Source: a phage. From it: a stretch of 64,000 bases of DNA. The translations under genes and the position numbers were made by a program. The notes under the pieces are model-generated. The model did not search any database. It was not told where the DNA came from and saw nothing but the letters and a program-made list of their open reading frames with translations. Shown in pieces: positions 14,002 through 30,525 of the stretch; position 1 is the stretch's first letter; the number at the start of each line of letters is the position of its first letter. The stretch lies in sequence record PZ357121.2. One strand, written 5' to 3'.

Positions 14002-14249
14002 ATGTATTCTCTTCGAATGAAGTCCTCTACATATTTTAACATGTCATCCCTATCAGCAAAATATTCATCTAGTTCTGCATACATAACAACACCTGGTGCG
14101 TACTCACAGGTAACATACATTGTTCCGAAGAAACGAGGAGATGATTCCTCGTAATTCTCAGTCCATTCAACGATACCAATATAACCGTCACCAATACTAA
14201 ATTCATGACGATGGATTTCATAGTCAGTCTTCGTAGTCATTATAAGCAT
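13998..14249 (-). CDS. hypothetical protein (46.1-like)
   Basis: 83 aa ORF between 47 and 46; ATGA overlap with gene 46. Confidence 0.55.
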   Translation of the reverse strand: MLIMTTKTDYEIHRHEFSIGDGYIGIVEWTENYEESSPRFFGTMYVTCEYAPGVVMYAELDEYFADRDDMLKYVEDFIRREYI

Positions 14250-14484
14250 CCTCGATGCAGGCTTCAGCCATTTTCAGAAGAGAACCAGGAGTATCACCGT
14301 CCATTACATTGAAACTGAATTCCACAGCCCAGTCTGTACAGACACGAACTGCTTTAACTTCACCGTCTTCAACTCGTAATGGTTCAATCCAGTATTTCAC
14401 TGTGTTCTCGAATCCGTCGTCGTCAATAACGTCTATTTCAACTTCAAGCCCGAGCCCAGCATTGTTAAATTCATCTAAAGTCAT
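14224..14484 (-). CDS. hypothetical acidic protein (46.2-like)
   Basis: 86 aa ORF between 47 and 46. Confidence 0.55.
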   Translation of the reverse strand: MTLDEFNNAGLGLEVEIDVIDDDGFENTVKYWIEPLRVEDGEVKAVRVCTDWAVEFSFNVMDGDTPGSLLKMAEACIEDAYNDYED

Positions 14485-15500
14485 TGTGTTGCCTCAATAT
14501 AAAGTTCGTTGGAATATTTGACCAGCGCTTCTCTGTCTTCGTCTGAGATATCTGGAATCGCGTCAATATATTCTTTAATGATATCTTGAAGTGATTTAAT
14601 CTCGATTTCCTGGTCGTCATCAGATTCAACACTGTTATCAACTTTAGAAACCATACGAAGAGAGTGAACTACTTTTTCAAGTTCAGATTCAAACTTAGTC
14701 AAATCTGAATCAATTTCTGATACTATAACACGTACGGCTAGATTAGTATAATCAGAATAATTGATTTTGCCTTTAAACGGATAAGTGATTCGTCGATGCC
14801 ATGTTGTTTCATTAGGAATAAATTCCATACGTTCGACATCAGTGTCAAATACCCAGAATCCGCGCGGGTCGTTCTCATCACCTGCAGTAAGAGTCCATGG
14901 TGTCCCAATATATTTGACGTTAGCAGCTTCAGAGATTGTGTGGAAGTGGCCGGACCAGACTTGTTTATAGGTCTTTAAGAAATCAGGTTCAAGCCCATGA
15001 GACTTCATTCCTTTATAGAAATAAAAGCCGTTCAGTTCCCAGTGACCAACACAATATGCAGCAGAAGAAGTCTTGATGTGCTCTAAGATTTCACCTGTAT
15101 TTTCTTCACACATCCATGGAACGATATCAATCAGGCATCCGTCAAAATCTACAGTAGTTGGATGTTCGTAAATAGTAAAGTTTTCAAATTGAGTTAACAA
15201 TTCAGAAACAGTGTTAGGTGTTATTGTATTCTTAAACGCCATGTCATGGTTTCCTATCGTGACATGAACGTGAATGCCTGCTTTAGAAATCATATCAACG
15301 ATTTCACGATTGAATTCCATTGTACGATGTGTTATTGCTTTACGGACGTCAAACCAATCACCGTACTGAATCCAAGTTTTAATCCCGTGTTTCTTAGAGT
15401 ATTCAATTGCTTGTCGAATACCATCACGTTGAATATCTTGAACCCATGGGTCGTCTTGTTTGACTCCGATATGGAAGTCGCCTAAGTGCAAAATTTTCAT
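14481..15500 (-). CDS. 47: recombination endonuclease subunit gp47 (Mre11-like)
   Basis: 339 aa; phosphoesterase motifs LHLGDFH, GDWFD, GNHD; SD GAGGAAA. Confidence 0.92.
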   Translation of the reverse strand: MKILHLGDFHIGVKQDDPWVQDIQRDGIRQAIEYSKKHGIKTWIQYGDWFDVRKAITHRTMEFNREIVDMISKAGIHVHVTIGNHDMAFKNTITPNTVSELLTQFENFTIYEHPTTVDFDGCLIDIVPWMCEENTGEILEHIKTSSAAYCVGHWELNGFYFYKGMKSHGLEPDFLKTYKQVWSGHFHTISEAANVKYIGTPWTLTAGDENDPRGFWVFDTDVERMEFIPNETTWHRRITYPFKGKINYSDYTNLAVRVIVSEIDSDLTKFESELEKVVHSLRMVSKVDNSVESDDDQEIEIKSLQDIIKEYIDAIPDISDEDREALVKYSNELYIEATQ

Positions 15501-15551
15501 ATTATTTCCTCATTAGTTAATTCATTCTATCATCCGTTTATAAAGCAAAAA

Positions 15552-15569
15552 AGGAACTCCGAAGAGTTC
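15552..15569 (-). terminator. rho-independent terminator (minus strand)
   Basis: Stem GGAACTC/GAGTTCC with 4-nt loop, followed on minus strand by TTTTTTGC. Confidence 0.5.
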
Positions 15570-15743
15570 CTATCCACATAGTACACCGTACAGAGGCTCA
15601 TTTGAACTTTTAAATCGAATGGGCTTGTACGTAATAGTTCCTTCGGCTTTAGCTTTATCATAAGACTCTTTAAAACGTCTCATTCTTTCTGCTTTGCCTT
15701 TACGGATTTTATCAAAATTTTCAGAAGTCGGGATGTTCGTCAT
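15570..15743 (-). CDS. small hypothetical protein (57 aa), below ORF-track cutoff
   Basis: Manual translation MTNIPTSENFDKIRKGKAERMRRFKESYDKAKAEG...; SD GAGAGGTG; stop abuts terminator hairpin. Confidence 0.45.
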   Translation of the reverse strand: MTNIPTSENFDKIRKGKAERMRRFKESYDKAKAEGTITYKPIRFKSSNEPLYGVLCG

Positions 15744-15782
15744 GCATAAGCACCTCTCAGAAAATGCCTAAATCGATTTCTC

Positions 15783-15989
15783 TCATCGTTTCCACCATTT
15801 CTTAACTTGAAATGAATCAACCCACACGAGTTGTTTTGGATCTGCCTTTACAATAGGCGGACAAATTTCTGTAATAGAACCGTCGTGATATTCCTTTTCG
15901 GAAATTTTAACACAAAGAGGACCACCCAATTTAACGGTGAACCCTGCGTTCAGCTTCAGACGTTTAAACTTTGTTTGAACTAGCGCCAT
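15783..15989 (-). CDS. hypothetical protein
   Basis: 68 aa from internal ATG (MALVQTKFKRLKL...) with SD GAGGA; ORF-track start is a TTG extension. Confidence 0.5.
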   Translation of the reverse strand: MALVQTKFKRLKLNAGFTVKLGGPLCVKISEKEYHDGSITEICPPIVKADPKQLVWVDSFQVKKWWKR

Positions 15990-16287
15990 TAATGATGTCC
16001 TCAATAGCCTGACGAGTAGTAACCCACTGGATTTTAATTAACTTGTCATTATACGGTTGTCGTAGAATATCCCGAGATTTCTTAATAGCATATTCGTAAG
16101 CTTCGAAGTTGTTTTGAATTGCTGCTTCTTGAGCATGTGCATAAAGACGGTTTAGTTCAAAACGATTCTTTTTAAGAATCTTTTCGGATTTTTTACGTGC
16201 TTCAGCTTCATTTTTCTTTTGGATTTCTTGTAGCATTTTAGCTACTGCATCTTCTGCTTCTTTATTTTCAATAATCTCGGTAGTCAT
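15964..16287 (-). CDS. hypothetical protein
   Basis: 107 aa ORF, charged/helical. Confidence 0.55.
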   Translation of the reverse strand: MTTEIIENKEAEDAVAKMLQEIQKKNEAEARKKSEKILKKNRFELNRLYAHAQEAAIQNNFEAYEYAIKKSRDILRQPYNDKLIKIQWVTTRQAIEDIINGASSNKV

Positions 16288-16288
16288 A

Positions 16289-16504
16289 TTATCTCATTAA
16301 ATTAAAATAAAAACGTCCATCCTCTTCAATACAGAACTCATACTCAACTGGAGTCCCATTTATTGAAAATGACACGTCATGTGGGTTCAAAGGGTCGATG
16401 TCAAAATTAATTTTAAATTCACGACCCAACAGTTTTACCAAATAAGGGATTGCTTCGTCAAAAGGTTCTTCTAAGTAGTTAGAGATGTCAATTGTCATCC
16501 TCAT
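16289..16504 (-). CDS. hypothetical protein
   Basis: About 71 aa from internal ATG ([15 protein letters not shown]...); upstream part of ORF overlaps the gene 55 3' end. Confidence 0.45.
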
Positions 16505-17045
16505 ATAAAAAATCCAAACTAGGCGAATCGCTAACAACTTCCTTCTTTTCAGCCCCAGGAGCTTTATAAGCGGATTCTTCATAATGCGTCATTTTATCGT
16601 AGATGTCTTGAATAAACGTTTCATCTACCAACGCTACCATATCATCGTCATGACTGTCGTAGACATTATGAACGAAGTAACTATATTTCTTTGCAACTTC
16701 CTTACGTTCTTTTTTGATACGTTGGACAAAAGCATTAAAACAAGCTCGAGTTATGTATGCATGTGGGTTATTGTACTTAGTTTCGTCGAAATTATGAAGT
16801 CCCTTAATAGAGGCTTCAATCCCATCTGCAATCATCTCCTGCTTCCAAGACTGGGTATATCCTGAAAAGTTGAAACGTTTGGACAGGCCTTCGGCGATAA
16901 GCATAATTGCTAAACCGATGGTATCATTCTGACGAATAATTTTGTTTGGGTCTTTATTATTTAAGAGCTCCTTTTTCCACTCGATTATAGCGGCGAGAAG
17001 CTCTTTATTATTCACATAGTTATTTTTAGGTTTTTGTTCAGTCAT
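16488..17045 (-). CDS. 55: late-transcription sigma factor gp55
   Basis: 185 aa from ATG 17045 ([20 protein letters not shown]...), SD AGAGGT; matches T4 gp55 length and sequence. Confidence 0.9.
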
Positions 17046-17074
17046 AAGTACCTCTTGGCTCAATTCATAGGTCT

Positions 17075-17110
17075 ATTATATCATAATATTTAGAGACCTA
17101 TCTTAAAGCA
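17075..17110 (-). promoter_or_regulatory. candidate promoter for gene 55 (extended -10 TGnTATAAT; TGCTTTA MotA-box-like upstream)
   Basis: Minus strand reads CGTGCTTTAAGATAGGTCTCTAAATATTATGATATAATAG about 30 nt upstream of ATG. Confidence 0.3.
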
Positions 17111-17117
17111 CGAGATA

Positions 17118-17387
17118 CTATCGGAGCAAACAATAAGCCTGAAACACTTTTTCCATTAAACGTTTGAACTCATGGATATCGATATAAAGCTCAGTAAGAC
17201 CGGCATTATAAAGAAAATCTAAAAAGTTCTCATGTGTTTCGTTATAGTCGCCTTCGTTTAATTGAGATACATGAGTTTCCCAAAAACCAACACCTTTAAC
17301 AAATGGAAAATACGTAACTTTCATAAAGTTGTCGACGTAAAATTCACCCAGCTTTTCTTCAGTTATACTGATTCGAGTTAATTTCAT
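17118..17387 (-). CDS. hypothetical protein
   Basis: 89 aa ORF in minus-strand gene array. Confidence 0.55.
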   Translation of the reverse strand: MKLTRISITEEKLGEFYVDNFMKVTYFPFVKGVGFWETHVSQLNEGDYNETHENFLDFLYNAGLTELYIDIHEFKRLMEKVFQAYCLLR

Positions 17388-17611
17388 TCTAGTTCCTTTG
17401 CTGCTTCAAGAGCAACATCCAGCGAATCAAATTGGTCTACGAAATCAATATTCAACGCATCATCAACCGTAGCATATAACCACCATTGTTTGAATTCGTA
17501 TTCTAGAATAAATCCAGGACCTTCAATCTGAGGAAGACCTAGGCTATTTGTACCAACTTCGTAACCAGCTAGACGCAGGTCATTAATCAAAGTTTCTGTT
17601 AATACGCTCAT
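17384..17611 (-). CDS. hypothetical acidic protein
   Basis: 75 aa ORF; start/stop overlaps with neighbours. Confidence 0.55.
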   Translation of the reverse strand: MSVLTETLINDLRLAGYEVGTNSLGLPQIEGPGFILEYEFKQWWLYATVDDALNIDFVDQFDSLDVALEAAKELE

Positions 17612-17988
17612 TTTGCCGCCTTAACAATTTTCAGGTCAACGAATTTTTTCTTACGTTGATTTTTCATACGACGGATAGTCTTTTCAGAGATTTCATGTTT
17701 CTGATAAGCTTTAGATTCAACACCAAATGCAGCAACGTCAAATTCAGAAAGAATATATTGTACTAGAATTTCACGAATAGAATTACGTCCAATTTTCTGG
17801 TCGTGTTTTTGCATGATTTCATAAAGACGGAATTCCCACGCATCAAGAACTTGAGGAGTAACAATATTGCCAGATTCCAGAAGAGCAACAACTTTATCGA
17901 AAGCGAAAGAATTAACTACGTTTTTGATTTTAGTAGACATATTATTTTCCTCGGTTATTTTATTATCCAACGAGAGAATTATACTCAT
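17608..17988 (-). CDS. hypothetical protein
   Basis: 126 aa ORF. Confidence 0.6.
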   Translation of the reverse strand: MSIILSLDNKITEENNMSTKIKNVVNSFAFDKVVALLESGNIVTPQVLDAWEFRLYEIMQKHDQKIGRNSIREILVQYILSEFDVAAFGVESKAYQKHEISEKTIRRMKNQRKKKFVDLKIVKAAK

Positions 17989-18006
17989 CTCTCAAGAGTT
18001 TGTATA

Positions 18007-18246
18007 CTATTTTTTAAGCATGAAAAGTAAGTAATTTGTATCACGTGGAGTAATATCAACACCCATATCAAAGATGCCTTTATAGATTGGGTATTTGTTT
18101 TCGGTTGTATCGAAGCTGAAACTATTTCCATCACAACTAACAGTAATAGCATCTGTTAAAATGTCATACTCAATCCTAACAATTGAATCCCCAATTTTAA
18201 CGTCGAGGTGTTTTTTGAATTTGATAAAATCTAATTCTTGGGCCAT
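18007..18246 (-). CDS. hypothetical protein
   Basis: 79 aa ORF. Confidence 0.55.
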   Translation of the reverse strand: MAQELDFIKFKKHLDVKIGDSIVRIEYDILTDAITVSCDGNSFSFDTTENKYPIYKGIFDMGVDITPRDTNYLLFMLKK

Positions 18247-18309
18247 GATATTTTCCTCATTTTAAGACGATAGGAAGATAATAACATGTCTTCCTATCGT
18301 TGTACATTA

Positions 18310-18510
18310 TTAACCGAACTTTTTAGCGCCTTTCCAGCCTTCGTACATAACTGCACAAGTCAGTAGTACAGCGTGCTGGCATTCTTTGTATTTGTAAATC
18401 CAGAACCAGCGTAAGAAGTCTTCATCCTCAACGCCGTTGAGTTTCATATTGGCAAAGAATTCGGCACGTTCTTCACGAAGCTTTTGCGATAACATAGATT
18501 CAGGATTCAT
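18310..18510 (-). CDS. hypothetical protein
   Basis: 66 aa ORF. Confidence 0.5.
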   Translation of the reverse strand: MNPESMLSQKLREERAEFFANMKLNGVEDEDFLRWFWIYKYKECQHAVLLTCAVMYEGWKGAKKFG

Positions 18511-18641
18511 TTTGTGTTCCAGGCCCCATTTTCATCGATGAACTTAATCCAGTCATTTACAGACCATTTAGTTGTATCACCCTTTGGATTAACATTTAAA
18601 GTATATAATCCCTGCTTAAAAAGCATTCGTTTGATATTCAT
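18507..18641 (-). CDS. small hypothetical protein
   Basis: 44 aa from internal ATG 18641 with strong SD GAGGAAA; ORF-track start overlaps the upstream gene. Confidence 0.4.
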   Translation of the reverse strand: MNIKRMLFKQGLYTLNVNPKGDTTKWSVNDWIKFIDENGAWNTK

Positions 18642-18648
18642 AATTTCC

Positions 18649-18942
18649 TCAACTGTAACGATAACATTCGTTAGCTTTACGTTTGGCTTCAGTATGAGAA
18701 GTATTATAATCATACTCTTCTTTACTGTAAACATCTTTTTTCAACTTACGAACTTCTTTGCGGAGTTGTCGATTCATTTCATTCTTGACTTCAGAATCAA
18801 CGCCTTTCATACGCTTCCATTTATCAGAGCGGAATATGTTTTCAACCATGTCTTTGTGGCTAACACCGTCAGGAGCTTTACGCTTACCAAAATAGTCGTA
18901 ATCGCGAACTTTCAAATCTTTACGACGATATGTTTTACCCAT
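18649..18942 (-). CDS. hypothetical basic protein
   Basis: 97 aa from ATG 18942 (MGKTYRRKDLK...), SD GAGGT. Confidence 0.5.
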   Translation of the reverse strand: MGKTYRRKDLKVRDYDYFGKRKAPDGVSHKDMVENIFRSDKWKRMKGVDSEVKNEMNRQLRKEVRKLKKDVYSKEEYDYNTSHTEAKRKANECYRYS

Positions 18943-18949
18943 AAGTACC

Positions 18950-19198
18950 TCAGAGGTTGATTGATACAACGCGTTTGATAAAATTCACTTCACTTACTGA
19001 AAGGTCTTTAAGACCGATTGATTCTAAACGCTGAGTAAGCGTCAACATCGGGATATAATCCCAATGAGTTTTATTTGCTTGATAAGTACGAACGCCATTA
19101 GCAATTTCAACGTTCAAATCAGAAATGGTAATGAATATCGGACGTTCGTCATTAACTTTAAGGGTTAGAACAACTTTCTTTGAATCTAAACTAATCAT
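18950..19198 (-). CDS. hypothetical protein
   Basis: 82 aa ORF. Confidence 0.55.
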   Translation of the reverse strand: MISLDSKKVVLTLKVNDERPIFITISDLNVEIANGVRTYQANKTHWDYIPMLTLTQRLESIGLKDLSVSEVNFIKRVVSINL

Positions 19199-19377
19199 GA
19201 CTTAATTTCCTTCGCAATTGAACAGAAGATACCACGGTCACAAAGCATTTCACCAATTTCTGGATATTTGATTGAACGGTACCAAACATCCAGGTTTGAA
19301 ACTTTGGTTATCTGTACTGCATTACCGTTGACAGAATAGTACTGGTCAACCTTAATTTCTTTATCTTCAATTGTCAT
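19195..19377 (-). CDS. small hypothetical protein
   Basis: 60 aa from ATG 19377 (MTIEDKEIKVDQYY...), SD GAGGAAAA; early promoter GTTTAC..TAAGAT upstream; longer ORF-track form is a non-ATG extension. Confidence 0.45.
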   Translation of the reverse strand: MTIEDKEIKVDQYYSVNGNAVQITKVSNLDVWYRSIKYPEIGEMLCDRGIFCSIAKEIKS

Positions 19378-19526
19378 TTTATTTTCCTCTATAGTAGATG
19401 GTTTAATCTTAACACATTTATTGAGGATGTAAACTGTTTTATGAAAATATTTTTTGATTTGAGAGGGGCACAAGGAGATAGTGAAGTGAAGATTCCAATG
19501 GATTATATTAGAAATGAGATAAAGAA

Positions 19527-19545
19527 GACCAGGCGGCACCTGGTC
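19527..19545 (-). terminator. rho-independent terminator (minus strand)
   Basis: Stem GACCAGG/CCTGGTC with 5-nt loop, followed on minus strand by TTCTTTATCTC. Confidence 0.45.
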
Positions 19546-19867
19546 AATCTTCTATGATATCAGAGTCATATCCTAATGAAATCAAGGACTTTTTAAACTC
19601 TGCAATATTCTTTTGTTTCTTATCATTTAAAAATATGACAGGATAACGAATATTAAGTGAAGTGAATCCTGCACGTTTAGCAAGAGATACGATTAAAGGA
19701 CGGTCATATTCAATCTTACCATTATTAGTGAGGACTTTATAAAATGTATAAGGAGCATTGAGCTCCTTTAAAAGTTTTGTAACAGTATAACATCCTGGAC
19801 AACGTCCAACTTCTTCAGGGATGCCATAAATTTCAATCTTGTTCTTTAAGTTCGAGTTTTGTTCCAC
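19544..19867 (-). CDS. thioredoxin/glutaredoxin-fold protein (NrdH-like); start uncertain (GTG proposed)
   Basis: CPGC redox motif in IEIYGIPEEVGRCPGCYTV; candidate GTG start with SD AAGGA. Confidence 0.45.
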   Translation of the reverse strand: MEQNSNLKNKIEIYGIPEEVGRCPGCYTVTKLLKELNAPYTFYKVLTNNGKIEYDRPLIVSLAKRAGFTSLNIRYPVIFLNDKKQKNIAEFKKSLISLGYDSDIIED

Positions 19868-20150
19868 GAGAAATAATTCCTTGGTAAGCCCAATAAGGAG
19901 GATTAACAGAATCCTCGCCAGAGTTTTCTTCAGGAAAATAAACCTGGATAACGAAGCCGGATTCATCAAAGGTAAAATAAACCGTAGGCAGTTCACCTAA
20001 CAAATCGGCACGAGCGTTGATTTCTTCGAGGTCTTGTTCACGTCCAGCCCAGAAGCTTGGGTTCAGACTACATTCATAGAAATAATAGTCATTACCGAAC
20101 ATATCAAAACCATTCCAACTCTCTACTACATACCGCTCAAAACTAATCAT
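19833..20150 (-). CDS. hypothetical acidic protein
   Basis: 105 aa ORF. Confidence 0.5.
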   Translation of the reverse strand: MISFERYVVESWNGFDMFGNDYYFYECSLNPSFWAGREQDLEEINARADLLGELPTVYFTFDESGFVIQVYFPEENSGEDSVNPPYWAYQGIISRGTKLELKEQD

Positions 20151-20152
20151 AA

Positions 20153-20368
20153 TTAAGCCTTTTTATCAAGAACAGAGTTCAGTTTATTAGTAATTTTGTC
20201 CAAACGTTCATTGAATTCGCTGGAGGATAAACCCTTTTCTGGAGAAATTAAACTAATCACGAAAAATACACCAGTAAAAGGAATAAGAAAAATAGCTCCA
20301 ACTGCCATAAACAAAAAGAACGTTACAGTTGTAAGAAAATCAGCTAAACCTTTACGAAATTTGTACAT
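20153..20368 (-). CDS. small membrane protein
   Basis: 71 aa; hydrophobic segment FLFMAVGAIFLIPFTGVFFVISLI. Confidence 0.5.
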   Translation of the reverse strand: MYKFRKGLADFLTTVTFFLFMAVGAIFLIPFTGVFFVISLISPEKGLSSSEFNERLDKITNKLNSVLDKKA

Positions 20369-20478
20369 ATTTACCCTTAATTAACTAAGCATTGATAATC
20401 ATTAAACTATATTGCGAATAAAATTCTGGACCAAAACGAAAAATCATATCATTTATAGTATCCATAATGTAATTCAAT

Positions 20479-20949
20479 TTAATCATGTTTCCACACCCCA
20501 TCGGTATTTGACCAAAGTCGCTGATTATCTGATCCTCGCCACAGCTTTTTAGTCGGAAGATTTTTCTCATACTTCCCATCAATAATAACATCAACATATT
20601 TAAGCATTTCTAGTTGTTTAATATCTTCAAACTTATATCCTGTCCACAACCAAATGCTTTTATTGGGATAAAGATTTTTTACTGTTTGAGCAATGCAATG
20701 AATAACATCTCGGTTATCAGGATAGAGAGGGTCACCTCCGGTTATAGTTAATCCTTCTATATAATCATTATTCAAACATTCAATTAATTGTTCTAGTGTT
20801 TCACCAGTGAATGGAACACCATTTCTAGCATTCCATGTTGATTTATTATAACACCCTTCGCATTTATGCAAACAACCTGTAACGAAAAGAACGACCCTGC
20901 ATCCAGGACCATTCACAAAATCGCAAGGATAAAATCTATCATAATTCAT
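20479..20949 (-). CDS. nrdG: anaerobic ribonucleotide reductase activating protein NrdG (radical SAM)
   Basis: 156 aa; CxxxCxxC motif CLHKCEGC; directly downstream of nrdD. Confidence 0.9.
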   Translation of the reverse strand: MNYDRFYPCDFVNGPGCRVVLFVTGCLHKCEGCYNKSTWNARNGVPFTGETLEQLIECLNNDYIEGLTITGGDPLYPDNRDVIHCIAQTVKNLYPNKSIWLWTGYKFEDIKQLEMLKYVDVIIDGKYEKNLPTKKLWRGSDNQRLWSNTDGVWKHD

Positions 20950-22237
20950 TGGTGTTTAACCCTATGCATGATTTCTTTATTTTTACCGAGATTAAATCCG
21001 CGTTCGTTCGGATTTCCCAAATAACCACATGTTCTTCTTATTGTGTTCATCTTTTTAGGATCAGTTTCTCCACAAACTGAACAAACAAATCCGTTTTCAG
21101 TAGGAGTCATTTCATGGGTACTTCCGCATGTAAAACATTTATCTACTGGCATATTAACACCAAAATAATCTAAATGTTGTGCAGCATAATCCCATACGGC
21201 CTCAAGACCTTTTAGGTTATTTTTCATATCAGGAAGTTCAACATAAGAAATGTGACCGCCGGTCGCTATGAAATGATATGGCGCTTCACGAGAAATCTTT
21301 TCAAACGGAGTAATATTTTCTTCTACTGAAACGTGGAAACTGTTAGTGTACCAGCCTTTATCGGTAACATCCTTTACACTTCCATATTTTTCTGTATCGA
21401 GTTTACAGAAGCGATAACAAAGGTTTTCAGCAGGAGTCGAATATAAACTAAAAGCAAAACCGGTTCTTTCAGTCCACTGCTTAAGATGAGCATTCATTTT
21501 AGTTAAAATTTCTTGTCCAATATCACGACCGACAAGAATATTCAATTCGTGAATACCAATGTATCCTAAGGACACTGAACTTCTACCGTTTTTAAATAAC
21601 TCAATTATATCGTCATCAGGTTTAAGACGAACCCCGAATGCACCTTCTTGGTAAAGAATAGGAGCAACAGTCGCTTTAACACCCTTTAAAGAACTAATTC
21701 TACACATCAAGGCTTCAAAACACAGATCCATTCGTTCATTAAACAACTCGATAAATTTCTGTTCATTGAACTGTGTTCCAATATAAGAATCTAATGCGAT
21801 GCGAGGAAGATTCAGCGTTACAACACCGAGATTATTACGTCCATCAAGAATTTCATTACCAGTCGAATCTTTCCATACGCTCAAGAAACTACGGCAACCC
21901 ATTGGAGAAACTGGAACTGAAGAACCGGTAATAGCTTTATTATTCTTAACCGAAATAATGTCAGGATACATTCTTTTGCTTGCGCATTCTAACGCAAGTT
22001 GTTTAATATCATAGTTCGGATCATCTTTATAAAGATTAACACCTTCTTCAACAAACATAACAAGTTTAGGAAAAATAGGAGTTATTCCATCACGACCAAG
22101 ACCTTTAATGCGGTTTTTAAGAATTGCCTTCTGAATAATTCGTTCAGTCCAGTCAATTCCCGTACCAAATGTAATTGTCACAAAAGGCGTTTGTCCATTA
22201 GAGCTGAAAAGTGTATTTACTTCATCATTATATTCAG
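20946..22237 (-). CDS. nrdD: anaerobic ribonucleoside-triphosphate reductase NrdD, exon 2 (5' boundary inferred)
   Basis: Glycyl-radical motif RRTCGYLG, C-terminal Zn site CFTCG..CSVCG; joins exon 1 to give about 607 aa; junction chosen by alignment to E. coli NrdD (DAFQ..EY..VNTL). Confidence 0.8.
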
Positions 22238-23276
22238 CATGAGTCGCAAATTCATGCCCGTTTATATGAAACAACAAAATTTGGATAGTCCATAGATATG
22301 CAACGTTCTTTTATAGTGCTAGGATGAAAATTTAGCGCTTTAGCTGCTTCTATATAAGACGTATACTTAATACCGTCAACAACCACATATTCAGGAACTT
22401 TATGAATAGTAGTCTTAATACTCAAAACAAGAGGATGAGTTTCGACTTCACTTTCAGTGCAATTTAAATATTCCGCTGCTTTTTTAAAACTTCTAAAAGT
22501 TTTATTTTTAAGCTTTATCGATACTTGTTTTTTACTTTTTCGACTATTGATATTATTTTGCACATGTTCCTTAGATCTTCCGTTTTTAGCATAATATTCA
22601 GCTACAGAAGATTTTATATTGTTTTTATGAGATTCGGATAACACTTTACCCTTATGAGCATCTCTTAATTTTTGAATATGTTCTTCAGTATCCGGATGCT
22701 TATAAAACTTTTTACCGCCTATGGATTTATTTAAACATTTTTTGCTATAAAAATATTTACGTATGACCTCTTCTTCATGTTTTAATGCATCTTTATAACT
22801 ATCAAATGTTTTTAAAATTATCCATTTAGTAGGTGTATCAGTTTTTAAGCGTTCATTTATATACTTAGATGACGTTGTGTAAGTTTTCCAGTTTGTGGGC
22901 TTGTTTTTAATTGTTCTAAATTTTTTATAACCGATATAAATGTCACCATTAGAAAACTTAACTAAGTATGTAAATGCGTCTTTATCTTTTATTTTAGTAC
23001 AACGTCTTTTTATCCATTTCATTGTTTCACCTCGTATTCATAAGATAATCTTATTTATACAAGATGACTGCTGCATGTCGCCATGCAGATTAGACTATAT
23101 CTTCATCTTTCGATGCCGGCCGTTTCGAATAGCATTAGCTTCTATTCTACACCGCTACATTCATCACGGTTAGTCGTTAGGCATTTAGTTCAAAAGAACA
23201 TTTAGCACGGGATTGTCTACTAGAGAGGTTCCCCGTTTAGACCGGTTTTACATGAGCCTGAATTAAATTAACTCAT
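22238..23276 (-). mobile_element. group I self-splicing intron in nrdD (boundaries inferred, about 1039 nt)
   Basis: Minus strand carries the T4-intron core CTAAACGGGGAACCTCTCTAGTAGACAATCCCGTGCTAAAT just after the exon-1 end; proposed exon 1 ends in U, intron ends in G. Confidence 0.7.
22252..23022 (-). CDS. intron-encoded GIY-YIG homing endonuclease
   Basis: 256 aa; GIY-YIG core FTYLVKFSNGDIYIGYKK, NUMOD3-like SESHKNNIKSS, C-terminal HTH; sits 3' of the intron core. Confidence 0.8.
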   Translation of the reverse strand: MKWIKRRCTKIKDKDAFTYLVKFSNGDIYIGYKKFRTIKNKPTNWKTYTTSSKYINERLKTDTPTKWIILKTFDSYKDALKHEEEVIRKYFYSKKCLNKSIGGKKFYKHPDTEEHIQKLRDAHKGKVLSESHKNNIKSSVAEYYAKNGRSKEHVQNNINSRKSKKQVSIKLKNKTFRSFKKAAEYLNCTESEVETHPLVLSIKTTIHKVPEYVVVDGIKYTSYIEAAKALNFHPSTIKERCISMDYPNFVVSYKRA

Positions 23277-23808
23277 ACGCCTGGAATGCATCGTATACGT
23301 CTTTTTCTGTTTTAGATTGGGCATAATTCAACGCATCAGCGATTTGCCATTTTTCTGCATCCTCAATATGTTTTGCATAGGTGCGTTTAACATAAGGAGA
23401 AAGAACTTTATCGACATTCGCAAATGTAGTTCCACCATACTGATGCGAAGCAACTTGTGCAGTAATTTGTGCCATAATTGCAGTAGCAACACCAATAGAT
23501 TTAGGCGTTTCAATTTGAGCATTGCCGAGCTTAAATCCGTTTTCAAGCATTCCTTTTAAATCTACTAAACAGCAATTAGTAAAAGGCAATGATATACTGT
23601 AATCTAAATCATGAAAATGAATTAATCCAACATTATGGGCATTTACAATATGACTTGGAAGAATACGACAAGCGATATGTTTAGAAACAATACCGGCCAT
23701 TAAATCTCTTTTTGTTGGAAAGACGCGAGAATCTTTGTTGGCGTTTTCTGTATTTAATTCTTTATCTTTATTTGAAATAAAATTTAAAACATCTTTTTCT
23801 AAAGACAT
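23277..23808 (-). CDS. nrdD: anaerobic ribonucleoside-triphosphate reductase NrdD, exon 1
   Basis: ENANKDSRVFPTKRDLMAGIV...AQVASHQYGGTT aligns with E. coli NrdD after its ATP-cone; ORF-track stop at 23263 lies in the intron. Confidence 0.8.
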
Positions 23809-24620
23809 AATTCTAATTTATCCTTTTGAAATTCTTCGTCTAAATATGGGTTCCAACCCATTTTAAACCTTTTGATGAAATTATCAATTCTAAATTTCGG
23901 TAAGTTTAAATCCGCAAAAATAGATGATTTACTTTTAAAATCTGGACTTAAATAATCATATAAAATTTCTGCGTATTTTAACCATAATATACAAGTACCA
24001 GATTTAATTGCTCTCGGAGTTTTCCAAGGTTTTACACCATACATCGGATTTCCACTTCCTTTATGCCTGATAGAAGATGAAATTCCAATTTTAATTTTAG
24101 CTTCCTTTGTATGCGAAAATCCACGATGTGGATTTTCTTTCCAGTATTTTTTAGAAGCTTCTGATATTTTCTTTCTGGCTAAATTAGTATGATGCTTTCC
24201 ATAAAATCCATGATTTTTGCCTTTATTACGATTTCTTTTAATCATGGTTATTGATTGCTTTTCTCTAGTTTCTTTAGAAGGAGAAATACCATATGTCGTA
24301 AATTGGCCATCAGCATATGCTAAATTAAAATACTCTTTATTCCATACATCTTTTTCTATATTCTTTTGAAATTCAGCTTCAATGCTAGTTATTTGTTCAT
24401 CTCCGACTAATTGAAAATATAATATCTCAACTTTCGGCGTTTCTTTCAATAAGGCTTTTTGAAATTCGGAAGATGACGAAGACGAATAATAAAATTTACC
24501 ATTTTTATCAATAATATTCGTTCCGTCAAAAGTGCAATTGGTTTTACTTCCAATGTAATAATATGGCGGGGTTTTAGCATTAATTCTACTAATAAACGAT
24601 AGTTTATATACTACATTCAT
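23799..24620 (-). CDS. free-standing GIY-YIG homing endonuclease (Seg-like)
   Basis: 273 aa; GIY-YIG core VYKLSFISRINAKTPPYYYIGSK; NUMOD3-like repeats (HTKEAKIKIGISSS). Confidence 0.75.
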   Translation of the reverse strand: MNVVYKLSFISRINAKTPPYYYIGSKTNCTFDGTNIIDKNGKFYYSSSSSSEFQKALLKETPKVEILYFQLVGDEQITSIEAEFQKNIEKDVWNKEYFNLAYADGQFTTYGISPSKETREKQSITMIKRNRNKGKNHGFYGKHHTNLARKKISEASKKYWKENPHRGFSHTKEAKIKIGISSSIRHKGSGNPMYGVKPWKTPRAIKSGTCILWLKYAEILYDYLSPDFKSKSSIFADLNLPKFRIDNFIKRFKMGWNPYLDEEFQKDKLELCL

Positions 24621-25090
24621 TTTAAACTCTTTCTAAGCTGCTTTTTGAATGAAGCTATTAATTGTGTTTTAGTATCAGATTCATTATATTCAAATCCTCT
24701 TTGAAGCATCTCGGCCATCATTTCCTCTTTACCTAGTCTCGAGAACTCTTTAGTTTTGTCTGGAACAAAATTAGGATGGATATTATTATCAGAATAATCT
24801 TGTTTCAAATAAGCAAGAAGAGCTTCAAGCCATTCGAGGTAGTTGACATCACGGCCTTTAAGACCGGAACGGTTGAACTTATGCTTCATTTGACCTTCTG
24901 CTGCGTTGCACAGATTACAGAGTAACCCACGAACTCTACCGGCTTTTGGCCCGTTTAATTCGTGGTCGTGGTCAAGATGGTTACCTTGAACATCAGGGTC
25001 TAATTCACGGTGGCAAATAGGACACTTACCGTTCTGTGCATCATAAAATTTTTGTTTTTCTTCTTTATATTTTGCGCCTGATAATAACAT
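24617..25090 (-). CDS. 49: endonuclease VII (Holliday junction resolvase) gp49
   Basis: 157 aa; zinc site CPIC..C..C and HLDHDHELNG motif; T4 gp49 length. Confidence 0.9.
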   Translation of the reverse strand: MLLSGAKYKEEKQKFYDAQNGKCPICHRELDPDVQGNHLDHDHELNGPKAGRVRGLLCNLCNAAEGQMKHKFNRSGLKGRDVNYLEWLEALLAYLKQDYSDNNIHPNFVPDKTKEFSRLGKEEMMAEMLQRGFEYNESDTKTQLIASFKKQLRKSLK

Positions 25091-25125
25091 GATAAACCCT
25101 TACCTTAAATAGATAAGGGTATTTA

Positions 25126-25551
25126 TTAACTTAAACGTCTTTCTAAATATTCAATGTATTCTGCGGCTGCTTGCATCAGGTTACCTTCATAGCCGTCGTT
25201 ATTTTCTTGTCCAGCTAATTTAGCTAATGCATAAGAAATTCGTTCACCTTCGAATTCACCAAGTTTACTACCTAGCACATCCGCAATATCAGCCGAATCA
25301 ATTTCTTCGAGTTCATCTATTGAATGTGATTCCCAGAAGCACCAAAGAGAAGTATCACGGTCATAGATGCAAAGTTTCTCACCAGTGTTCAACATCACTT
25401 CAATAATGCCATGGTCGCCATAACCATCTTCGGTCGTAGTACCAATTACCTTGATGATTGTTCCTTTCTTTAATTCAGGAAACTTGACTTGTAGTTCTTC
25501 ATCTTCTTTAACAATCTTGAACCATTTACCACGTGTGTCAGAAATATTCAT
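25126..25551 (-). CDS. hypothetical acidic protein
   Basis: 141 aa from ATG 25551 (MNISDTRGKWFKIV...), SD GAGGA; longer ORF-track form overlaps the upstream gene. Confidence 0.55.
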   Translation of the reverse strand: MNISDTRGKWFKIVKEDEELQVKFPELKKGTIIKVIGTTTEDGYGDHGIIEVMLNTGEKLCIYDRDTSLWCFWESHSIDELEEIDSADIADVLGSKLGEFEGERISYALAKLAGQENNDGYEGNLMQAAAEYIEYLERRLS

Positions 25552-25552
25552 A

Positions 25553-25723
25553 TCAATATCCTCTATAAAAGTTACGATGAGAACGTTTAGCTTTGCGAAG
25601 CTGACGTTTAGTAGGACGAACTGTAAATGGTTGTCCAGAGAAAAAATTCGGATCTGTTTTAATAAGCAAATACCAATCATGCTTGCCATTTTTTAATAAA
25701 CGGTACAATAATTTAACTTGCAT
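25553..25723 (-). CDS. small basic hypothetical protein
   Basis: 56 aa from ATG 25723; ORF-track start is a TTG. Confidence 0.4.
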   Translation of the reverse strand: MQVKLLYRLLKNGKHDWYLLIKTDPNFFSGQPFTVRPTKRQLRKAKRSHRNFYRGY

Positions 25724-25851
25724 AATAATCTCTTCCCATTTCCATATCAATCATATCGTTTACTGTAGGTTCATCATAACACGTTTCTTCGTCGTTGTAA
25801 ACTGTTTCGACGTCTGGCTCGACAGTTTCCCATCGAGCCGAATACCATGGC

Positions 25852-26208
25852 TTAACCCCGGAGTTTATTGAGCTCTTCATAATCAATCCAGGATTCTAGC
25901 CCTGACGGCAGGTCACATTCAATGTTCCACAGAAGCTCTTCAATGGCTTGCAGGCGATTATATTCTTCAACGGTAATGGTAACCATTGGTGTAACCGGTT
26001 CTGCCTTTTTAACCATCATGTCGTTCATCAGGACGTAAAGGTCATCACGAACGACAGTGTCGTTCCAACCCCATGATTTGGCTTCGTAAGCTAATGATGA
26101 AGGGAGCACATTTAAAACTTCAATAATAGTTGGAGCATCAGGACCAAGTTCATTGGCACAAACTTCGTATACATCTTGGAAATCTTTAAGATTTAATGAA
26201 TATGTCAT
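25852..26208 (-). CDS. hypothetical protein
   Basis: 118 aa; start region is one copy of a 22-bp direct repeat. Confidence 0.55.
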   Translation of the reverse strand: MTYSLNLKDFQDVYEVCANELGPDAPTIIEVLNVLPSSLAYEAKSWGWNDTVVRDDLYVLMNDMMVKKAEPVTPMVTITVEEYNRLQAIEELLWNIECDLPSGLESWIDYEELNKLRG

Positions 26209-26227
26209 TTAAAATATTCTCGCAGTT
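26206..26227. repeat. 22-bp direct repeat, copy 1 (CATTTAAAATATTCTCGCAGTT)
   Basis: Identical to 26521..26542; covers start codon and RBS of gene 25852..26208. Confidence 0.7.
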
Positions 26228-26523
26228 TATTGTTCTACACATGCACAGGAAACTTCGAAATCAGGACCGTCGTACTTCCAGTGATATTCACCAACAGGAA
26301 TCCAGTCACCATGCTCGTTTTCTTCATAGTCCTCAGGCTCAAGGCCAACGAATCGCCATTGGACACCGATGATTCTATTACCCATCATTACTCGAAATTC
26401 GCCCCATGGATTATCAATAGCATACTGAATATCGTTCTTAGCACGAGAACACATTTCTTGATATAACAAAGTTTCTAATTCGTCCTGGTCATAAGGGCCT
26501 GGGAAAGTTAAATCGATATTCAT
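26227..26523 (-). CDS. hypothetical acidic protein (cassette flanked by 22-bp direct repeats)
   Basis: 98 aa ORF lying exactly between the two repeat copies. Confidence 0.55.
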   Translation of the reverse strand: MNIDLTFPGPYDQDELETLLYQEMCSRAKNDIQYAIDNPWGEFRVMMGNRIIGVQWRFVGLEPEDYEENEHGDWIPVGEYHWKYDGPDFEVSCACVEQ

Positions 26524-26783
26524 TTAAAATATTCTCGCAGTTGGTCAAATCCACCAATGTGACTTCCGTCAGGAGCAAACACTTGAGGCATCGTCAATCC
26601 AACATGTGTTTCACGTCCAAGCTTAGCCAGAAGCTCAGCAATTTTTTCTTCATCGAATACACCTTTTTCTGGCATAACATTAATGAATTCGAACGGCTGT
26701 TTCTTAACAGTCAGCAATCGTTTCGCATTATCACAATAAATGCATTTATGAATAGTAGAGTCATACCCGTACACTTTAAACAT
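26520..26783 (-). CDS. nrdC: thioredoxin/glutaredoxin NrdC
   Basis: 87 aa from ATG 26783 (MFKVYGYDSTIHKCIYCDNAKRLL...), SD AAGGAAAA; matches T4 NrdC. Confidence 0.9.
   Translation of the reverse strand: MFKVYGYDSTIHKCIYCDNAKRLLTVKKQPFEFINVMPEKGVFDEEKIAELLAKLGRETHVGLTMPQVFAPDGSHIGGFDQLREYFK
26521..26542. repeat. 22-bp direct repeat, copy 2 (CATTTAAAATATTCTCGCAGTT)
   Basis: Identical to 26206..26227; covers the nrdC 3' end and the start of gene 26227..26523. Confidence 0.7.
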
Positions 26784-27189
26784 TATTTTTCCTTTCATCA
26801 ATTAAATATGCAATGCCAAATACAATACATGTAATAAAACCTGTGATACAGATAGAAACCAACAACACTGTACCAAAGAACCAAATCAAGTTATCTTTAG
26901 TAGTTTGTTTGATATCCATCTCACGAATTTCTATAGCTATCGTATCACCTTTATTCAGAAGCGTATAAAACGATGGCGATACACGCCTGTCAAAAACTCG
27001 TCCTTGCTCATCTTTATAGACTGCAATAAATTCTAATTTAGAATATTTTCCTGTAGATTGACCTGAGATTAGCTCTACTACCTCCACAGGAATTACTTTA
27101 GTTTCCATGTAAGTATTCTGGCTGTTCCAAATGAATGGAATGATGGCAAAAACTAAAGCTGCAATAAAGCAACGAAGGCTATATCTCAT
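26776..27189 (-). CDS. membrane protein (N- and C-terminal TM segments)
   Basis: 137 aa; hydrophobic N-terminus and C-terminal FFGTVLLVSICITGFITCIVFGIAYLI. Confidence 0.5.
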   Translation of the reverse strand: MRYSLRCFIAALVFAIIPFIWNSQNTYMETKVIPVEVVELISGQSTGKYSKLEFIAVYKDEQGRVFDRRVSPSFYTLLNKGDTIAIEIREMDIKQTTKDNLIWFFGTVLLVSICITGFITCIVFGIAYLIDERKNNV

Positions 27190-27494
27190 TATAATGTTCT
27201 CTCAAATTTGTGGAAGCATTTACGGCATTTCAATTTCAAGTTATCAGTGGTCCAGTTAACCAGTTGGACTTGGATAGTTCCACATTCCGGACATGGATGT
27301 TTTGCTGCCGATTTGGCAGCATTTTCACGTCGTTCAACCATTTTCATGATTTCGTTCCATGCCGGAGGAACGAACTCTTCTTCACTGTGGATTTTATCTC
27401 GCTGAACAAATTCAATCTTTGAACTATCGTCAATAAACTTAACCAAGCCGTGATTAGTGCTCATATCAATATCCTCTAAAAGACGTAGTTTCAT
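27189..27494 (-). CDS. zinc-ribbon protein
   Basis: 101 aa; CPECG...CRKC four-Cys ribbon. Confidence 0.55.
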   Translation of the reverse strand: MKLRLLEDIDMSTNHGLVKFIDDSSKIEFVQRDKIHSEEEFVPPAWNEIMKMVERRENAAKSAAKHPCPECGTIQVQLVNWTTDNLKLKCRKCFHKFERTL

Positions 27495-28444
27495 TATAAA
27501 ACCTCAATGGCATTTCGTAAACCGTCCGCTTTCGCATTCAGAGCTTTTAACGATTTAGTTTGTTCTGCAATCTGGGCTTCGACTTCTTTCAGACGAGATT
27601 TGAGATATTCGCGTTCTTCTCTTAAGTTATCAACTTTTTCTGCTTTAGGCTCTTTAATAGGCTTAGGCTTATACTCGTTAGGGTTCTTCAGCTTAATTTG
27701 AATACGAGAACTGAATAACATTGAACCGTTATCTTCGGTTTCATCATACATTTCTACCACGTCCATGATTCTTAACATCATGCGAAGTTTATAAGACAGC
27801 GAACGAATGGTTTTGTTGCGCTTATTAATTTCTTCGGCTTTCATGGTACCGAGATTACGTGAGTAGTAATAAGGAACCTGGATATCAATTGTCAATGATG
27901 CGTTACCATTACCGGTTGGTTTGAATACTGCAGTAACCCAATCTTTAACATGAACTTTATTTGTACGACCATCGCCGCCTGTGAATAATTTACGTGAATG
28001 TTTAAAAAGCATATTCACTTGGTTATTGAATTCACAAGCAAATTTATCGGCAAATTTAGTTTCAGGAATGGTAGATAACCAATCAGCCAAATGAGTCTTT
28101 TTAACATCGTTAATAATAGTAAATTCAACTAAATCAGTTTTAGGTGTCACAGATTTAATAAAGCTCGGCTTCATAAAGTTTTTAATGTTATCACGAGCTA
28201 CAGTAGAAGATAATAAACGAGAACGTTTGAACCATTGAAGCAGTGTCCCTAATGAATGAGAATACGCATTCTGAGTATCTTTACAGATATGATTTTCTTG
28301 GCCTGTGTATGTACCAAAATCGCGAAGAATACCACTTACTACAACTCGGTGTGGAACATCAAATCCTAATGAACCAGAAGCACGTTGGGCATGAACGTTA
28401 GCGATAAGACCTGCAAAATAATCAATGTAATGTGAACGTGTCAT
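27494..28444 (-). CDS. hypothetical 316-aa protein with C-terminal coiled coil (early gene A)
   Basis: Own promoter and SD GAGAGGAAAA; C-terminal heptad-rich tail. Confidence 0.65.
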   Translation of the reverse strand: MTRSHYIDYFAGLIANVHAQRASGSLGFDVPHRVVVSGILRDFGTYTGQENHICKDTQNAYSHSLGTLLQWFKRSRLLSSTVARDNIKNFMKPSFIKSVTPKTDLVEFTIINDVKKTHLADWLSTIPETKFADKFACEFNNQVNMLFKHSRKLFTGGDGRTNKVHVKDWVTAVFKPTGNGNASLTIDIQVPYYYSRNLGTMKAEEINKRNKTIRSLSYKLRMMLRIMDVVEMYDETEDNGSMLFSSRIQIKLKNPNEYKPKPIKEPKAEKVDNLREEREYLKSRLKEVEAQIAEQTKSLKALNAKADGLRNAIEVL

Positions 28445-28472
28445 AATATTTTCCTCTCGTTAAGATAGAAAG

Positions 28473-28501
28473 ATTATACTCCAACCGTCCTTGGTTGTAA
28501 A
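28473..28501 (-). promoter_or_regulatory. sigma70-type early promoter (TTTACA, 17 nt, TATAAT)
   Basis: Minus strand reads GTTTACAACCAAGGACGGTTGGAGTATAAT about 30 nt upstream of ATG 28444. Confidence 0.55.
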
Positions 28502-28506
28502 CTGAT

Positions 28507-29439
28507 TTATGATTTTAATGCATTCATTGCGTTAAAAAGTTTAGAGTACTGCAACTGGAGCTTGGTAACTACTTGTTGAGCATCACGAAGCTTAGCTTGT
28601 GCTTTGTCAAGTTCAACAGACAGTTGGTCCACAGTGGCTTTGATTTGATTATAATAGTAATCTTCTGCAGGAAGAAGACCGTTAGAGATTTCCAGTTTAG
28701 ACGACGGTGTGCCGTTAAACATAACAGGTTGTGCTGAAGCTGAATTAATCTTACCGATAGTCGGGGCGACAATAATTGACGCTTCGAACGTTGCATTTTC
28801 CTTTTTAAGATTTTTATAATATTCAGAGTCTTTGTGCCACCATGGCGCAGGAACCTTTTTACCAATAGATACACGAGCCTGGATAGCGATATGGCCCTTA
28901 TTCTTGATAACGTCGATAATATTAAGCTCACGAGAATAAATTGCTTTAATCTGGTGAATATTATCACCTAACACTTCCAACGCTTGGTGGAATACACGAG
29001 CAACGTTATCATTCTTAGGTTTATACGTAAGAGTGAACTCGTTCTCACTGATAACCATGATTTCCAACTTATCGTAAGTATATTTCAAATGTTTCATGTT
29101 AATTGCTTGAGGACGAATACGAGAAGCAATGGCCATCAGATTGTTAAGGTTATTCCGGAACTGCTTAGCGAAATATTGTCCTTCACCACCAATACAAAAA
29201 TTACGAAGTTTCTGTTTGGCTAATAAACGGCTGAACTCACCATTTTTAATGAACTCTTTAACGGGGGTGTTAGTAACGCATTCAAATTGAGTAAACTTAC
29301 GAGAAGTAATTCCATAATACGAACAGATTTCCTCAATCTCTTCAGGAGTCTTTACAGGCATACGGATAGGATTAGGACCTGGGGTATATGCGTTCGAGGT
29401 AAATTCTTTGATAAGTTCTCTACGTGTAATAAAAGCCAT
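28507..29439 (-). CDS. hypothetical 310-aa protein with C-terminal coiled coil (early gene B)
   Basis: Own promoter; C-terminal coiled coil KLRDAQQVVTKLQLQYSKL. Confidence 0.65.
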   Translation of the reverse strand: MAFITRRELIKEFTSNAYTPGPNPIRMPVKTPEEIEEICSYYGITSRKFTQFECVTNTPVKEFIKNGEFSRLLAKQKLRNFCIGGEGQYFAKQFRNNLNNLMAIASRIRPQAINMKHLKYTYDKLEIMVISENEFTLTYKPKNDNVARVFHQALEVLGDNIHQIKAIYSRELNIIDVIKNKGHIAIQARVSIGKKVPAPWWHKDSEYYKNLKKENATFEASIIVAPTIGKINSASAQPVMFNGTPSSKLEISNGLLPAEDYYYNQIKATVDQLSVELDKAQAKLRDAQQVVTKLQLQYSKLFNAMNALKS

Positions 29440-29465
29440 TTTATATTCCTCATGTTGAAAAATTT

Positions 29466-29494
29466 ATTATACTCCAACCATCCTTGGTTGTACA
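29466..29494 (-). promoter_or_regulatory. sigma70-type early promoter sharing its spacer with 28473..28501
   Basis: Minus strand reads TGTACAACCAAGGATGGTTGGAGTATAAT; spacer differs by 1 nt from the neighbouring promoter. Confidence 0.5.
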
Positions 29495-30490: not shown

Positions 30491-30525
30491 AACTATTTCC
30501 TCAGATTGAATTGGAACTCAAAACC

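Follow-up and report, generated by a model that had tools for sequence, protein, structure and literature searches.

What interrupts nrdD in this phage, where exactly is the gene interrupted, and has the endonuclease gene inside the interruption been replaced? The window (a stretch of 64,000 nucleotides of phage DNA, sequence record PZ357121.2) belongs to a T4-like phage, and Tequatrovirus genomes match the region. In a preliminary description of this DNA, NrdD was seen to be split into two minus-strand parts, and this was borne out by the Pfam matches: the minus-strand ORF 23808..23263 corresponds to NRDD positions 1-141 (E 4.9e-40), and the minus-strand ORF 22277..20946 corresponds to positions 145-562 (E 8.7e-122) and also matches Gly_radical. 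Each element of that description is present, at a level well above chance, and our analysis supports the reading that a group I intron with a putative GIY-YIG homing endonuclease ORF interrupts nrdD. Very probably, the locus is the mobile group I intron of the T4-family nrdD (sunY) type, at the nrdD site of T4. All features described here are on the minus strand and are given in window positions.

nrdD exon 1 (23271..23808; 538 nt) ends with ...GCG UAU GAG U and encodes Pfam NRDD positions 1-141, and exon 2 (20946..22225; 1280 nt including the stop codon) starts with AUGAAGUAAAU and encodes NRDD 145-562 together with Gly_radical. The last base of exon 1 is U23271 and the first base of exon 2 is A22225, and the expected ligated-exon sequence is ...GCGUAUGAGU|AUGAAGUAAAU. 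A Tyr codon (...AYE|YEV...) is interrupted between its bases 1 and 2; the T4 intron occupies the identical site in nrdD, and the lengths of both exons (538 and 1280 nt) are equal in the window and T4. The spliced NrdD would be 605 aa long with DAFQAYE|YEVNTL at the junction. This agrees with the T4 NrdD of PDB 1h78 (605 aa; ...DAFQAYEYEVNTLF...), in which QAYEYEVNTL spans the junction. Furthermore, the spliced DNA was compared with the intronless nrdD alleles listed (e.g. RB69), and 485/485 aligned with no gaps; at least 80% of the spliced DNA was covered in 625 phage records. The 605-aa spliced ORF has 94% identity to T4 NrdD. The codon differences from T4 nrdD are 108 synonymous and 35 non-synonymous, with 29 of the latter located within the first 77 codons. 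The features of a class III NrdD are all there: an NRDD domain, a glycyl-radical domain at the C-terminus and a spliced frame without interruption. The junction proposed earlier (23277/22237) is also in frame; however, its 5' side is displaced by 6 nt and its 3' side by 12 nt. The product it implied, DAFQ-AS-EYNDEVNTL, contains 2 extra amino acids found neither in T4 NrdD nor in any intronless allele, and its 3' G (22238) falls within a conserved terminal hairpin, in the 3' strand of the stem (see below). Another candidate for the intron end, G22247, was obtained by a naive alignment to the 3' end of T4 and gave AS-THAEYNDEV in frame (610 aa); it was ruled out by the PDB sequence. In annotation, nrdD should be entered as a single minus-strand CDS that joins 23808..23271 to 22225..20946.

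The intron (22226..23270; 1045 nt) starts with UAAUUUAAUUCAG and ends with ...GAAUAUAAUG, with the terminal G at 22226. When the same junction-mapping method was applied to T4, an intron of 1033 nt was obtained. The exon strand of P1, AUGAGU (23276..23271), is formed by the last 6 nt of exon 1 and pairs with an internal guide sequence, GCUCAU (23252..23257), which was read from the sequence. In P1, the 5' splice site carries the U.G wobble pair, and the intron closes with a G (...AAUG, G22226). That a group I intron lies in the nrdD gap was also upheld by a covariance-model check, in which Rfam RF00028 matched 23306..23071 over model positions 1-253 of 253 with 70.6 bits, above the gathering score of 50 (E 1.4e-17). 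T4 sunY reached 105.3 bits by the same Rfam procedure. The RF00028 match came from a local E-value search; the whole-window Rfam scan at gathering thresholds returned three tRNAs only and missed the intron, a false negative caused by the speed filter.

The catalytic core (23071..23249) was defined from the Rfam alignment, the MFE fold and a helix table, and consists of P3, P4, P5, P6/P6a, P7, P7.1, P7.2, P8 and P9, with all of its helices fully paired in the helix table. It occupies intron nt 22-200, upstream of the endonuclease ORF, which is located in the 3' extension at intron nt 249-1019. Compared with T4 sunY, compensatory double changes appeared in P3 (2), P4 (2), P6a (3) and P7.1 (2), while P7.2 and P8 are different perfect hairpins in place of the T4 sunY ones. 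These pairs were counted in helices tabulated by hand; a MAFFT alignment of five related cores misaligned P7.1 and P7.2 and was not used. The MFE fold (z = -4.0) recovered P3 to P9 except P7, which was mispaired. At the 3' end, a hairpin of 7 bp (22236..22258) includes the stop codon of the endonuclease and is followed by a 10-nt tail to G22226. The T4 sequence forms this hairpin too, and 4 of its pairs show compensatory changes between the window and T4. The identity of the element, its exact junction, the conservation of the fold with compensatory changes and the intact ORF are direct observations on this DNA.

The ORF 3' of the catalytic core (22252..23022) is intact, encodes 256 aa and is I-TevII-like. 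The 256-aa GIY-YIG ORF of the preliminary description was confirmed, with two Pfam families above their cutoffs: SegE_GIY-YIG at residues 9-86 (26.6 bits with a cutoff of 25, a marginal score) and NUMOD1 at residues 171-193 (25.3 bits, cutoff 22.8). An N-terminal GIY-YIG nuclease domain and a C-terminal DNA-binding module are both present in the ORF, and it was assigned to PHROG 314, homing endonuclease (E 3.6e-29). In comparison with T4 I-TevII, it showed 56% identity and 72% positives over 256/258 aa (E 1e-101), and the endonuclease is better annotated as I-TevII-like. Ahead of the gene, a hairpin that would sequester the RBS (23028..23066; -15.7 kcal/mol, z = -5.8) hides GAGG and contains a T4 late-promoter-like motif, TATAAATA, at 23059..23052. 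The T4 counterpart folds likewise, and both the hairpin and the motif are conserved. The scan for sigma-70 promoters gave 6 sites vs 8.9 expected, T4 late promoters being outside the model of that scan. The region before the ORF also resembles the intronless homing site, with a 17/22 match that was reached by 3 of 1000 shuffles. Such an arrangement has been described for I-TevII (Edgell et al., 2010, PMC2988022).

In its general organization, the window intron is similar to the T4 nrdD (sunY) intron with I-TevII. Both share the host gene, the exact insertion site, a 605-aa NrdD with AYE|YEV, the P1 and guide sequences (AUGAGU / GCUCAU), a whole core placed before an ORF in the 3' extension, the terminal hairpin, the RBS hairpin with TATAAATA, and a homologous GIY-YIG endonuclease. 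However, they are not the same allele: nucleotide identity was only about 66% over 97% of the length, the lengths differ (1045 nt in the window vs 1033 nt in T4), the P6a, P7.2 and P8 hairpins have different sequences, and P4-P6 of the window is td-like. With the T4 td intron and I-TevI, the window shares the intron subgroup, a GIY-YIG endonuclease, an identical 42-nt block (J3/4-P4-P5-P6 5') and an identical 17-nt block (UAAAUGCCUAACGACUA). In contrast, the T4 td intron differs in its host gene (td), its guide sequence and its P7.1 to P8 regions, and its ORF is located in the P6a loop whereas the window ORF comes after P9; no tblastn similarity between I-TevI and the window ORF was detected at E 1e-5. 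The T4/RB3 nrdB intron with I-TevIII is likewise a group I intron in a T-even ribonucleotide reductase gene, but it interrupts nrdB and its endonuclease is of the HNH type.

The T4 nrdD/sunY intron and I-TevII are a textbook self-splicing intron and homing endonuclease, and a T4 nrdD/sunY intron with an I-TevII-type gene is already known and ordinary. The window intron belongs to a second nrdD-intron lineage, diverged but already sequenced: several GenBank phages carry it at 99.7-100% identity, and existing records mostly annotate a split nrdD and a 'homing endonuclease'. Within the set of papers searched, no relevant description of this divergent lineage was found. When the endonuclease protein was searched by tblastn in a phage collection, only two clades appeared, the window type and I-TevII, and no intermediates between the window and T4 lineages were found among 50,697 phage records. 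The endonuclease gene records comprised 46 of the window type (some 45 sequenced records of Tequatrovirus) vs 25 of the T4 type. Degenerate derivatives were also found, including a 566-nt ORF deletion and copies aligning in two pieces, which we read as probable frameshifts; such derivatives are expected from the life cycle of homing endonucleases.

Within the core lies a 71-nt block (23171..23241) covering J3/4, P4, P5, P6, J6/7 and the 5' strand of P7. All 71 positions match the ORF-less td intron of phage HMD-9 (100% identity), and the block is the longest common substring between the two introns. With the T4 td intron, the longest common substring was 42 nt, while the longest stretch common to the window intron and T4 sunY was 19 nt and located elsewhere. 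The preliminary description had taken a 41-mer from within this block (23240..23200) for the conserved core of T4 introns. The 41-mer is indeed present on the minus strand in the gap; however, it is not the core of the T4 nrdD intron: neither that intron nor the T4 nrdB intron contains it, whereas it is found unchanged in the T4 td intron. When the window intron was aligned with both T4 sunY and T4 td, the sequence flanking the block switched to sunY-like or unique sequence. That P4-P6 matches td sequence exactly suggests an exchange between td and nrdD introns, and gene conversion between them is most likely behind the block. With modest confidence, we favor a natural chimeric origin for the window-type nrdD intron. 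Its framework would be of the sunY type (P1 guide, P7.1, terminal hairpin and I-TevII-like gene), and ectopic gene conversion would have swapped its P4-P6 with that of the td intron found in this group of phages. ORF-less td introns such as that of HMD-9 may stem from such an exchange running the other way.

Alternatively, the window intron could have descended vertically from the T4 sunY intron, with the 71-nt identity to td reflecting an extreme constraint on P4-P6 and no recombination. No part of this intron family is better conserved than P4-P6, which is similar even in the terL intron of an Aeromonas phage and the nrdD intron of a Justusliebigvirus. However, T4 sunY, inserted at the same nrdD site, differs at about one quarter of the block positions and keeps the pairs by compensatory changes; therefore, the exact sequence of the block is not constrained. 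Furthermore, the 71/71 identity covers the unconstrained P6a hairpin and loop (GUUC-UUUU-GAAC), which is common to one td intron, and the similarity becomes sunY-like or unique on either side of the block. We regard descent without recombination as rather unlikely, though a strong constraint on P4-P6 could be a partial source of the td identity.

As a working model, the nrdD pre-mRNA would fold into a subgroup IA-type ribozyme, with P1 followed by a core of P3 to P9 with P7.1 and P7.2. Self-splicing with a guanosine cofactor is predicted to join U23271 to A22225, yielding a continuous 605-aa class III ribonucleotide reductase. By homology with I-TevII, the enzyme would cut intronless nrdD in co-infecting phages, and the intron would be copied into them as the double-strand break is repaired from the intron-bearing allele. 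Expression of the endonuclease would be restrained, as in T4, by the RBS-hiding hairpin with its late-promoter motif, and the homing-site-like hairpin may serve as an operator for autorepression. For the window lineage, splicing and cleavage are predictions based on structure, on conservation and on what is known from T4.

In our view, it is highly improbable that the intron is a dead relic that has lost splicing, leaving nrdD as a pseudogene or as a gene for two separate polypeptides. nrdD is dispensable under aerobic laboratory culture and non-essential in standard culture; viable isolates carrying the intron are therefore not in themselves proof of splicing. The two halves of nrdD are separate CDSs in many database records, and the exon 1 frame reaches a stop codon 3 codons into the intron. 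However, the exons are intact with mostly synonymous changes, the helices of the ribozyme are each kept by compensatory substitutions, and the U.G wobble and the terminal G are both in place. No in-frame ATG was found near the start of exon 2, and the crystal structures of T4 NrdD show a single chain of 605 aa across the junction.

The suggestion that the endonuclease gene had been replaced within a conserved intron rested on the premise that the ORF of the T4 nrdD intron is of the HNH type. The T4 reference annotation, in which nrdD is joined from 2 pieces, describes I-TevII as 'GIY-YIG family, encoded by group 1A intron in nrdD', and I-TevII is listed as GIY-YIG, intron-encoded and in nrdD by Edgell et al. 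(2010, PMC2988022, Table 1). According to the same paper and the annotation, the HNH enzyme is I-TevIII of the nrdB intron. The T4/RB3 nrdB intron was probably the one meant, and the inference of a replacement is unsupported because it was built on a false premise. The comparison with the T4 ORF pointed the same way: the window ORF is an end-to-end homologue of I-TevII, collinear over its full length, and is therefore the same occupant as in T4, diverged at the sequence level, and not a replacement. HNH-bearing nrdD introns do exist in some unrelated phages (Vibrio matches annotated 'HNH endonuclease | anaerobic ribonucleoside reductase') and, beyond the earlier premise, nothing else supports a swap of an HNH for a GIY-YIG gene here; against it, the window ORF keeps the T4 position 3' of the core and the same upstream hairpin, and conservation relative to T4 sunY is not higher in the intron RNA than in the ORF (core about 68%, ORF about 63% identity), so that such a swap can hardly be entertained.

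Tequatroviruses carry two deeply diverged lineages of one intron at one site. If the chimeric origin proposed above is true, two endonuclease lineages with only 56% identity compete for a single homing site, and the window-type intron would exemplify the shuffling of domains between introns in the field. Intron domain shuffling was reportedly observed by Bryk and Belfort in 1990 in laboratory crosses of T4, and to our knowledge it is known only from such crosses. With its td-identical block in one of the two lineages, this pair of introns offers natural material for studying intron recombination and the evolution of endonuclease specificity.

As the preliminary description had recognized, nrdD in this phage is interrupted by a group I intron. 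A local Rfam search matched RF00028 at 23306..23071 with 70.6 bits (E 1.4e-17), above the gathering score of 50; the T4 nrdD intron, sunY, scored 105.3 bits by the same procedure. Pfam NRDD was divided between the two nrdD ORFs, with positions 1-141 on the first and 145-562 on the second, which also carries the glycyl-radical domain. The default gathering scan of the whole window (1..64000) did not report the intron, though it stood 20 bits above the gathering score in the local 1.3 kb search. We attributed the miss to a speed-filter effect; judging from this difference, ORF-bearing group I introns can escape fast Rfam filters. The MFE fold recovered P3, P4, P5, P6, P7.1, P7.2, P8, P9 and the pre-ORF hairpin with P7 mispaired, and in the helix-by-helix table all helices, P7 included, were fully paired. 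Double compensatory changes relative to sunY were found in P3 (2), P4 (2), P6a (3) and P7.1 (2), and P7.2 and P8 were different perfect hairpins in the two introns. Nucleotide identity to sunY was ~66% overall (core ~68%, ORF ~63%, tail ~62%).

Splicing could conceivably be placed in frame at three junctions. In crystallised T4 NrdD (1h78, 605 aa) the sequence across the junction is ...KDVYDAFQAYEYEVNTLF..., and intronless alleles have TATGAAT/ATGAAGTAAAT at the site (slash, junction). Both disagree with the junction 23277/22237 ('AS-EYNDEV') proposed earlier, which was misplaced by 6 nt on the 5' side and by 12 nt on the 3' side. At the corrected coordinates (minus strand), exon 1 spans 23808..23271, the intron 23270..22226 (1045 nt; 1033 nt in T4 by the same procedure) and exon 2 22225..20946, and NrdD after splicing has 605 aa. 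The spliced DNA query, ...GCGTATGAGT/ATGAAGTAAAT..., aligned to intronless nrdD at 485/485 without gaps and reached at least 80% coverage in 625 records, RB69 among them. P1 forms between AUGAGU at the end of the exon and the guide GCUCAU, with U.G as a wobble pair at the splice site. The GAA of intronless alleles is GAG in those that carry the intron, which keeps that P1 pair intact. The 3' G chosen earlier falls inside a conserved 7-bp terminal hairpin, in which the window and T4 are distinguished by four compensatory changes. The exons differed from T4 by 108 synonymous and 35 non-synonymous changes, 29 of the latter in the first 77 codons, adjoining the upstream endonuclease gene. This mostly synonymous exon divergence argues for a functional, spliced nrdD.

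The intron does contain a GIY-YIG ORF: its 256-aa product (23022..22252, minus strand) matched SegE_GIY-YIG and NUMOD1, as well as the homing-endonuclease family PHROG 314. The suggestion that it had replaced an HNH-type ORF was not borne out. The T4 reference record gives nrdD as a two-piece join with 'I-TevII ... encoded by group 1A intron in nrdD; GIY-YIG family', and the HNH enzyme I-TevIII is located in the nrdB intron; Table 1 of the review by Edgell, Gibb and Belfort makes the same assignments (PMC2988022). Over its full length the window ORF aligned with I-TevII, 144 of 257 positions being identical (56%, E 1e-101). Because I-TevII is itself GIY-YIG and the homology is full-length, such an occupant is expected and ORF replacement is unsupported. 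As in T4, the GAGG ribosome-binding site is sequestered in a stable hairpin (-15.7 kcal/mol, z = -5.8), within which TATAAATA lies. Compared with the intronless homing site (AAGCTTATGAATATGAAGTAAA), the pre-ORF stretch TATCTTATGAATACGAGGTGAA has 17 matches in 22 positions, a count reached by only 3 of 1000 shuffles. This apparent mimic fits the operator or autorepression idea proposed for I-TevII (PMC2988022).

The window source is a T4-like phage; 1096 phage records matched the region, mostly phages of Escherichia, Klebsiella, Shigella and Salmonella, and Tequatrovirus genomes matched best (95-97%). The minus-strand gene order was gene 49 (endonuclease VII, 25090..24617), a free-standing 273-aa homing endonuclease (24620..23799), the nrdD 5' part (from 23808), a gap of ~1 kb, the nrdD 3' part (to 20946) and nrdG (20949..20479). 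The nrdG start lies 4 nt ahead of the nrdD stop codon (overlap 20946..20949). T4 has mobC at the nrdD/nrdG position and phage F26 another homing endonuclease, whereas the site is empty here. Three tRNA genes (51227..52177, minus strand; Rfam 53.6-59.4 bits) were consistent with a T4-type tRNA cluster. The 273-aa endonuclease, whose gene shares 10 nt with the start of nrdD, matched NUMOD3, PHROG 7504 and PHROG 314, and is absent from T4. The first 231 nt of nrdD (codons 1-77, 23808..23578) were only 63% identical to T4, and this diverged 5' end occurred together with the endonuclease gene in 49 phage records. The pair assorted independently of intron type (T4-type in fPS-2, window-type in Lv5cm). 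These sequence comparisons suggest that the target site has diverged in linkage with the 273-aa endonuclease.

The 41-mer (23240..23200, minus strand) taken earlier for the conserved T4-intron core does not belong to the T4 nrdD core and is identical to the T4 td intron. The identity extended to 71 nt (23241..23171, J3/4 through the P7 5' strand) in a td intron lacking an ORF, that of Escherichia phage HMD-9, and to 42 nt plus 17 nt in ordinary td introns. P7.1 was sunY-like, as were P1 with its guide and the pre-ORF region; P7.1 and P7.2 came closest to the terL intron of an Aeromonas phage. A td intron is also present in many phages that have the window-type nrdD intron, and td/nrdD intron exchange would be the most economical reading of the mosaic; we regard the td-like block as a minor lead. 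The HMD-9 intron (349..564 of our td locus L009; Rfam 72.7 bits) has a P6 hairpin, GUUC-UUUU-GAAC, where the I-TevI-containing P6a loop would be. It may have lost I-TevI via conversion from the nrdD intron, or may have donated the block itself. In Escherichia phage pEC-M2929-1AR.1 (Justusliebigvirus), nrdD is interrupted at a different site (...VTSMG/CRSFL...) by a related group I intron, likewise without an ORF (344..629 of locus L008; 70.4 bits), whose guide region resembles that of T4 sunY.

Several GenBank phages, e.g. vB_EcoM_SYGD1, carry the same intron at 99.7-100% identity. The endonuclease gene was of the window type in 46 records and of the T4 type in 25; by tblastn these were the only two clades, and the next matches were ~34% identical in the N-terminal domain only. 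In Escherichia phage 215Ecol030PP (locus L006), the window-type endonuclease has a 566-nt ORF deletion (window 22982..22417); in vB_EcoM_F1 and 236Ecol005PP the gene aligns in two pieces, which we read as frameshifts. The introns are otherwise intact, and such decay is the degeneration phase that homing endonucleases usually pass through. The original observation was thus essentially right, apart from the junction and the inferred ORF replacement: the element is a divergent but previously sequenced lineage of the nrdD intron known from the T4 family, and its endonuclease is of the I-TevII type.
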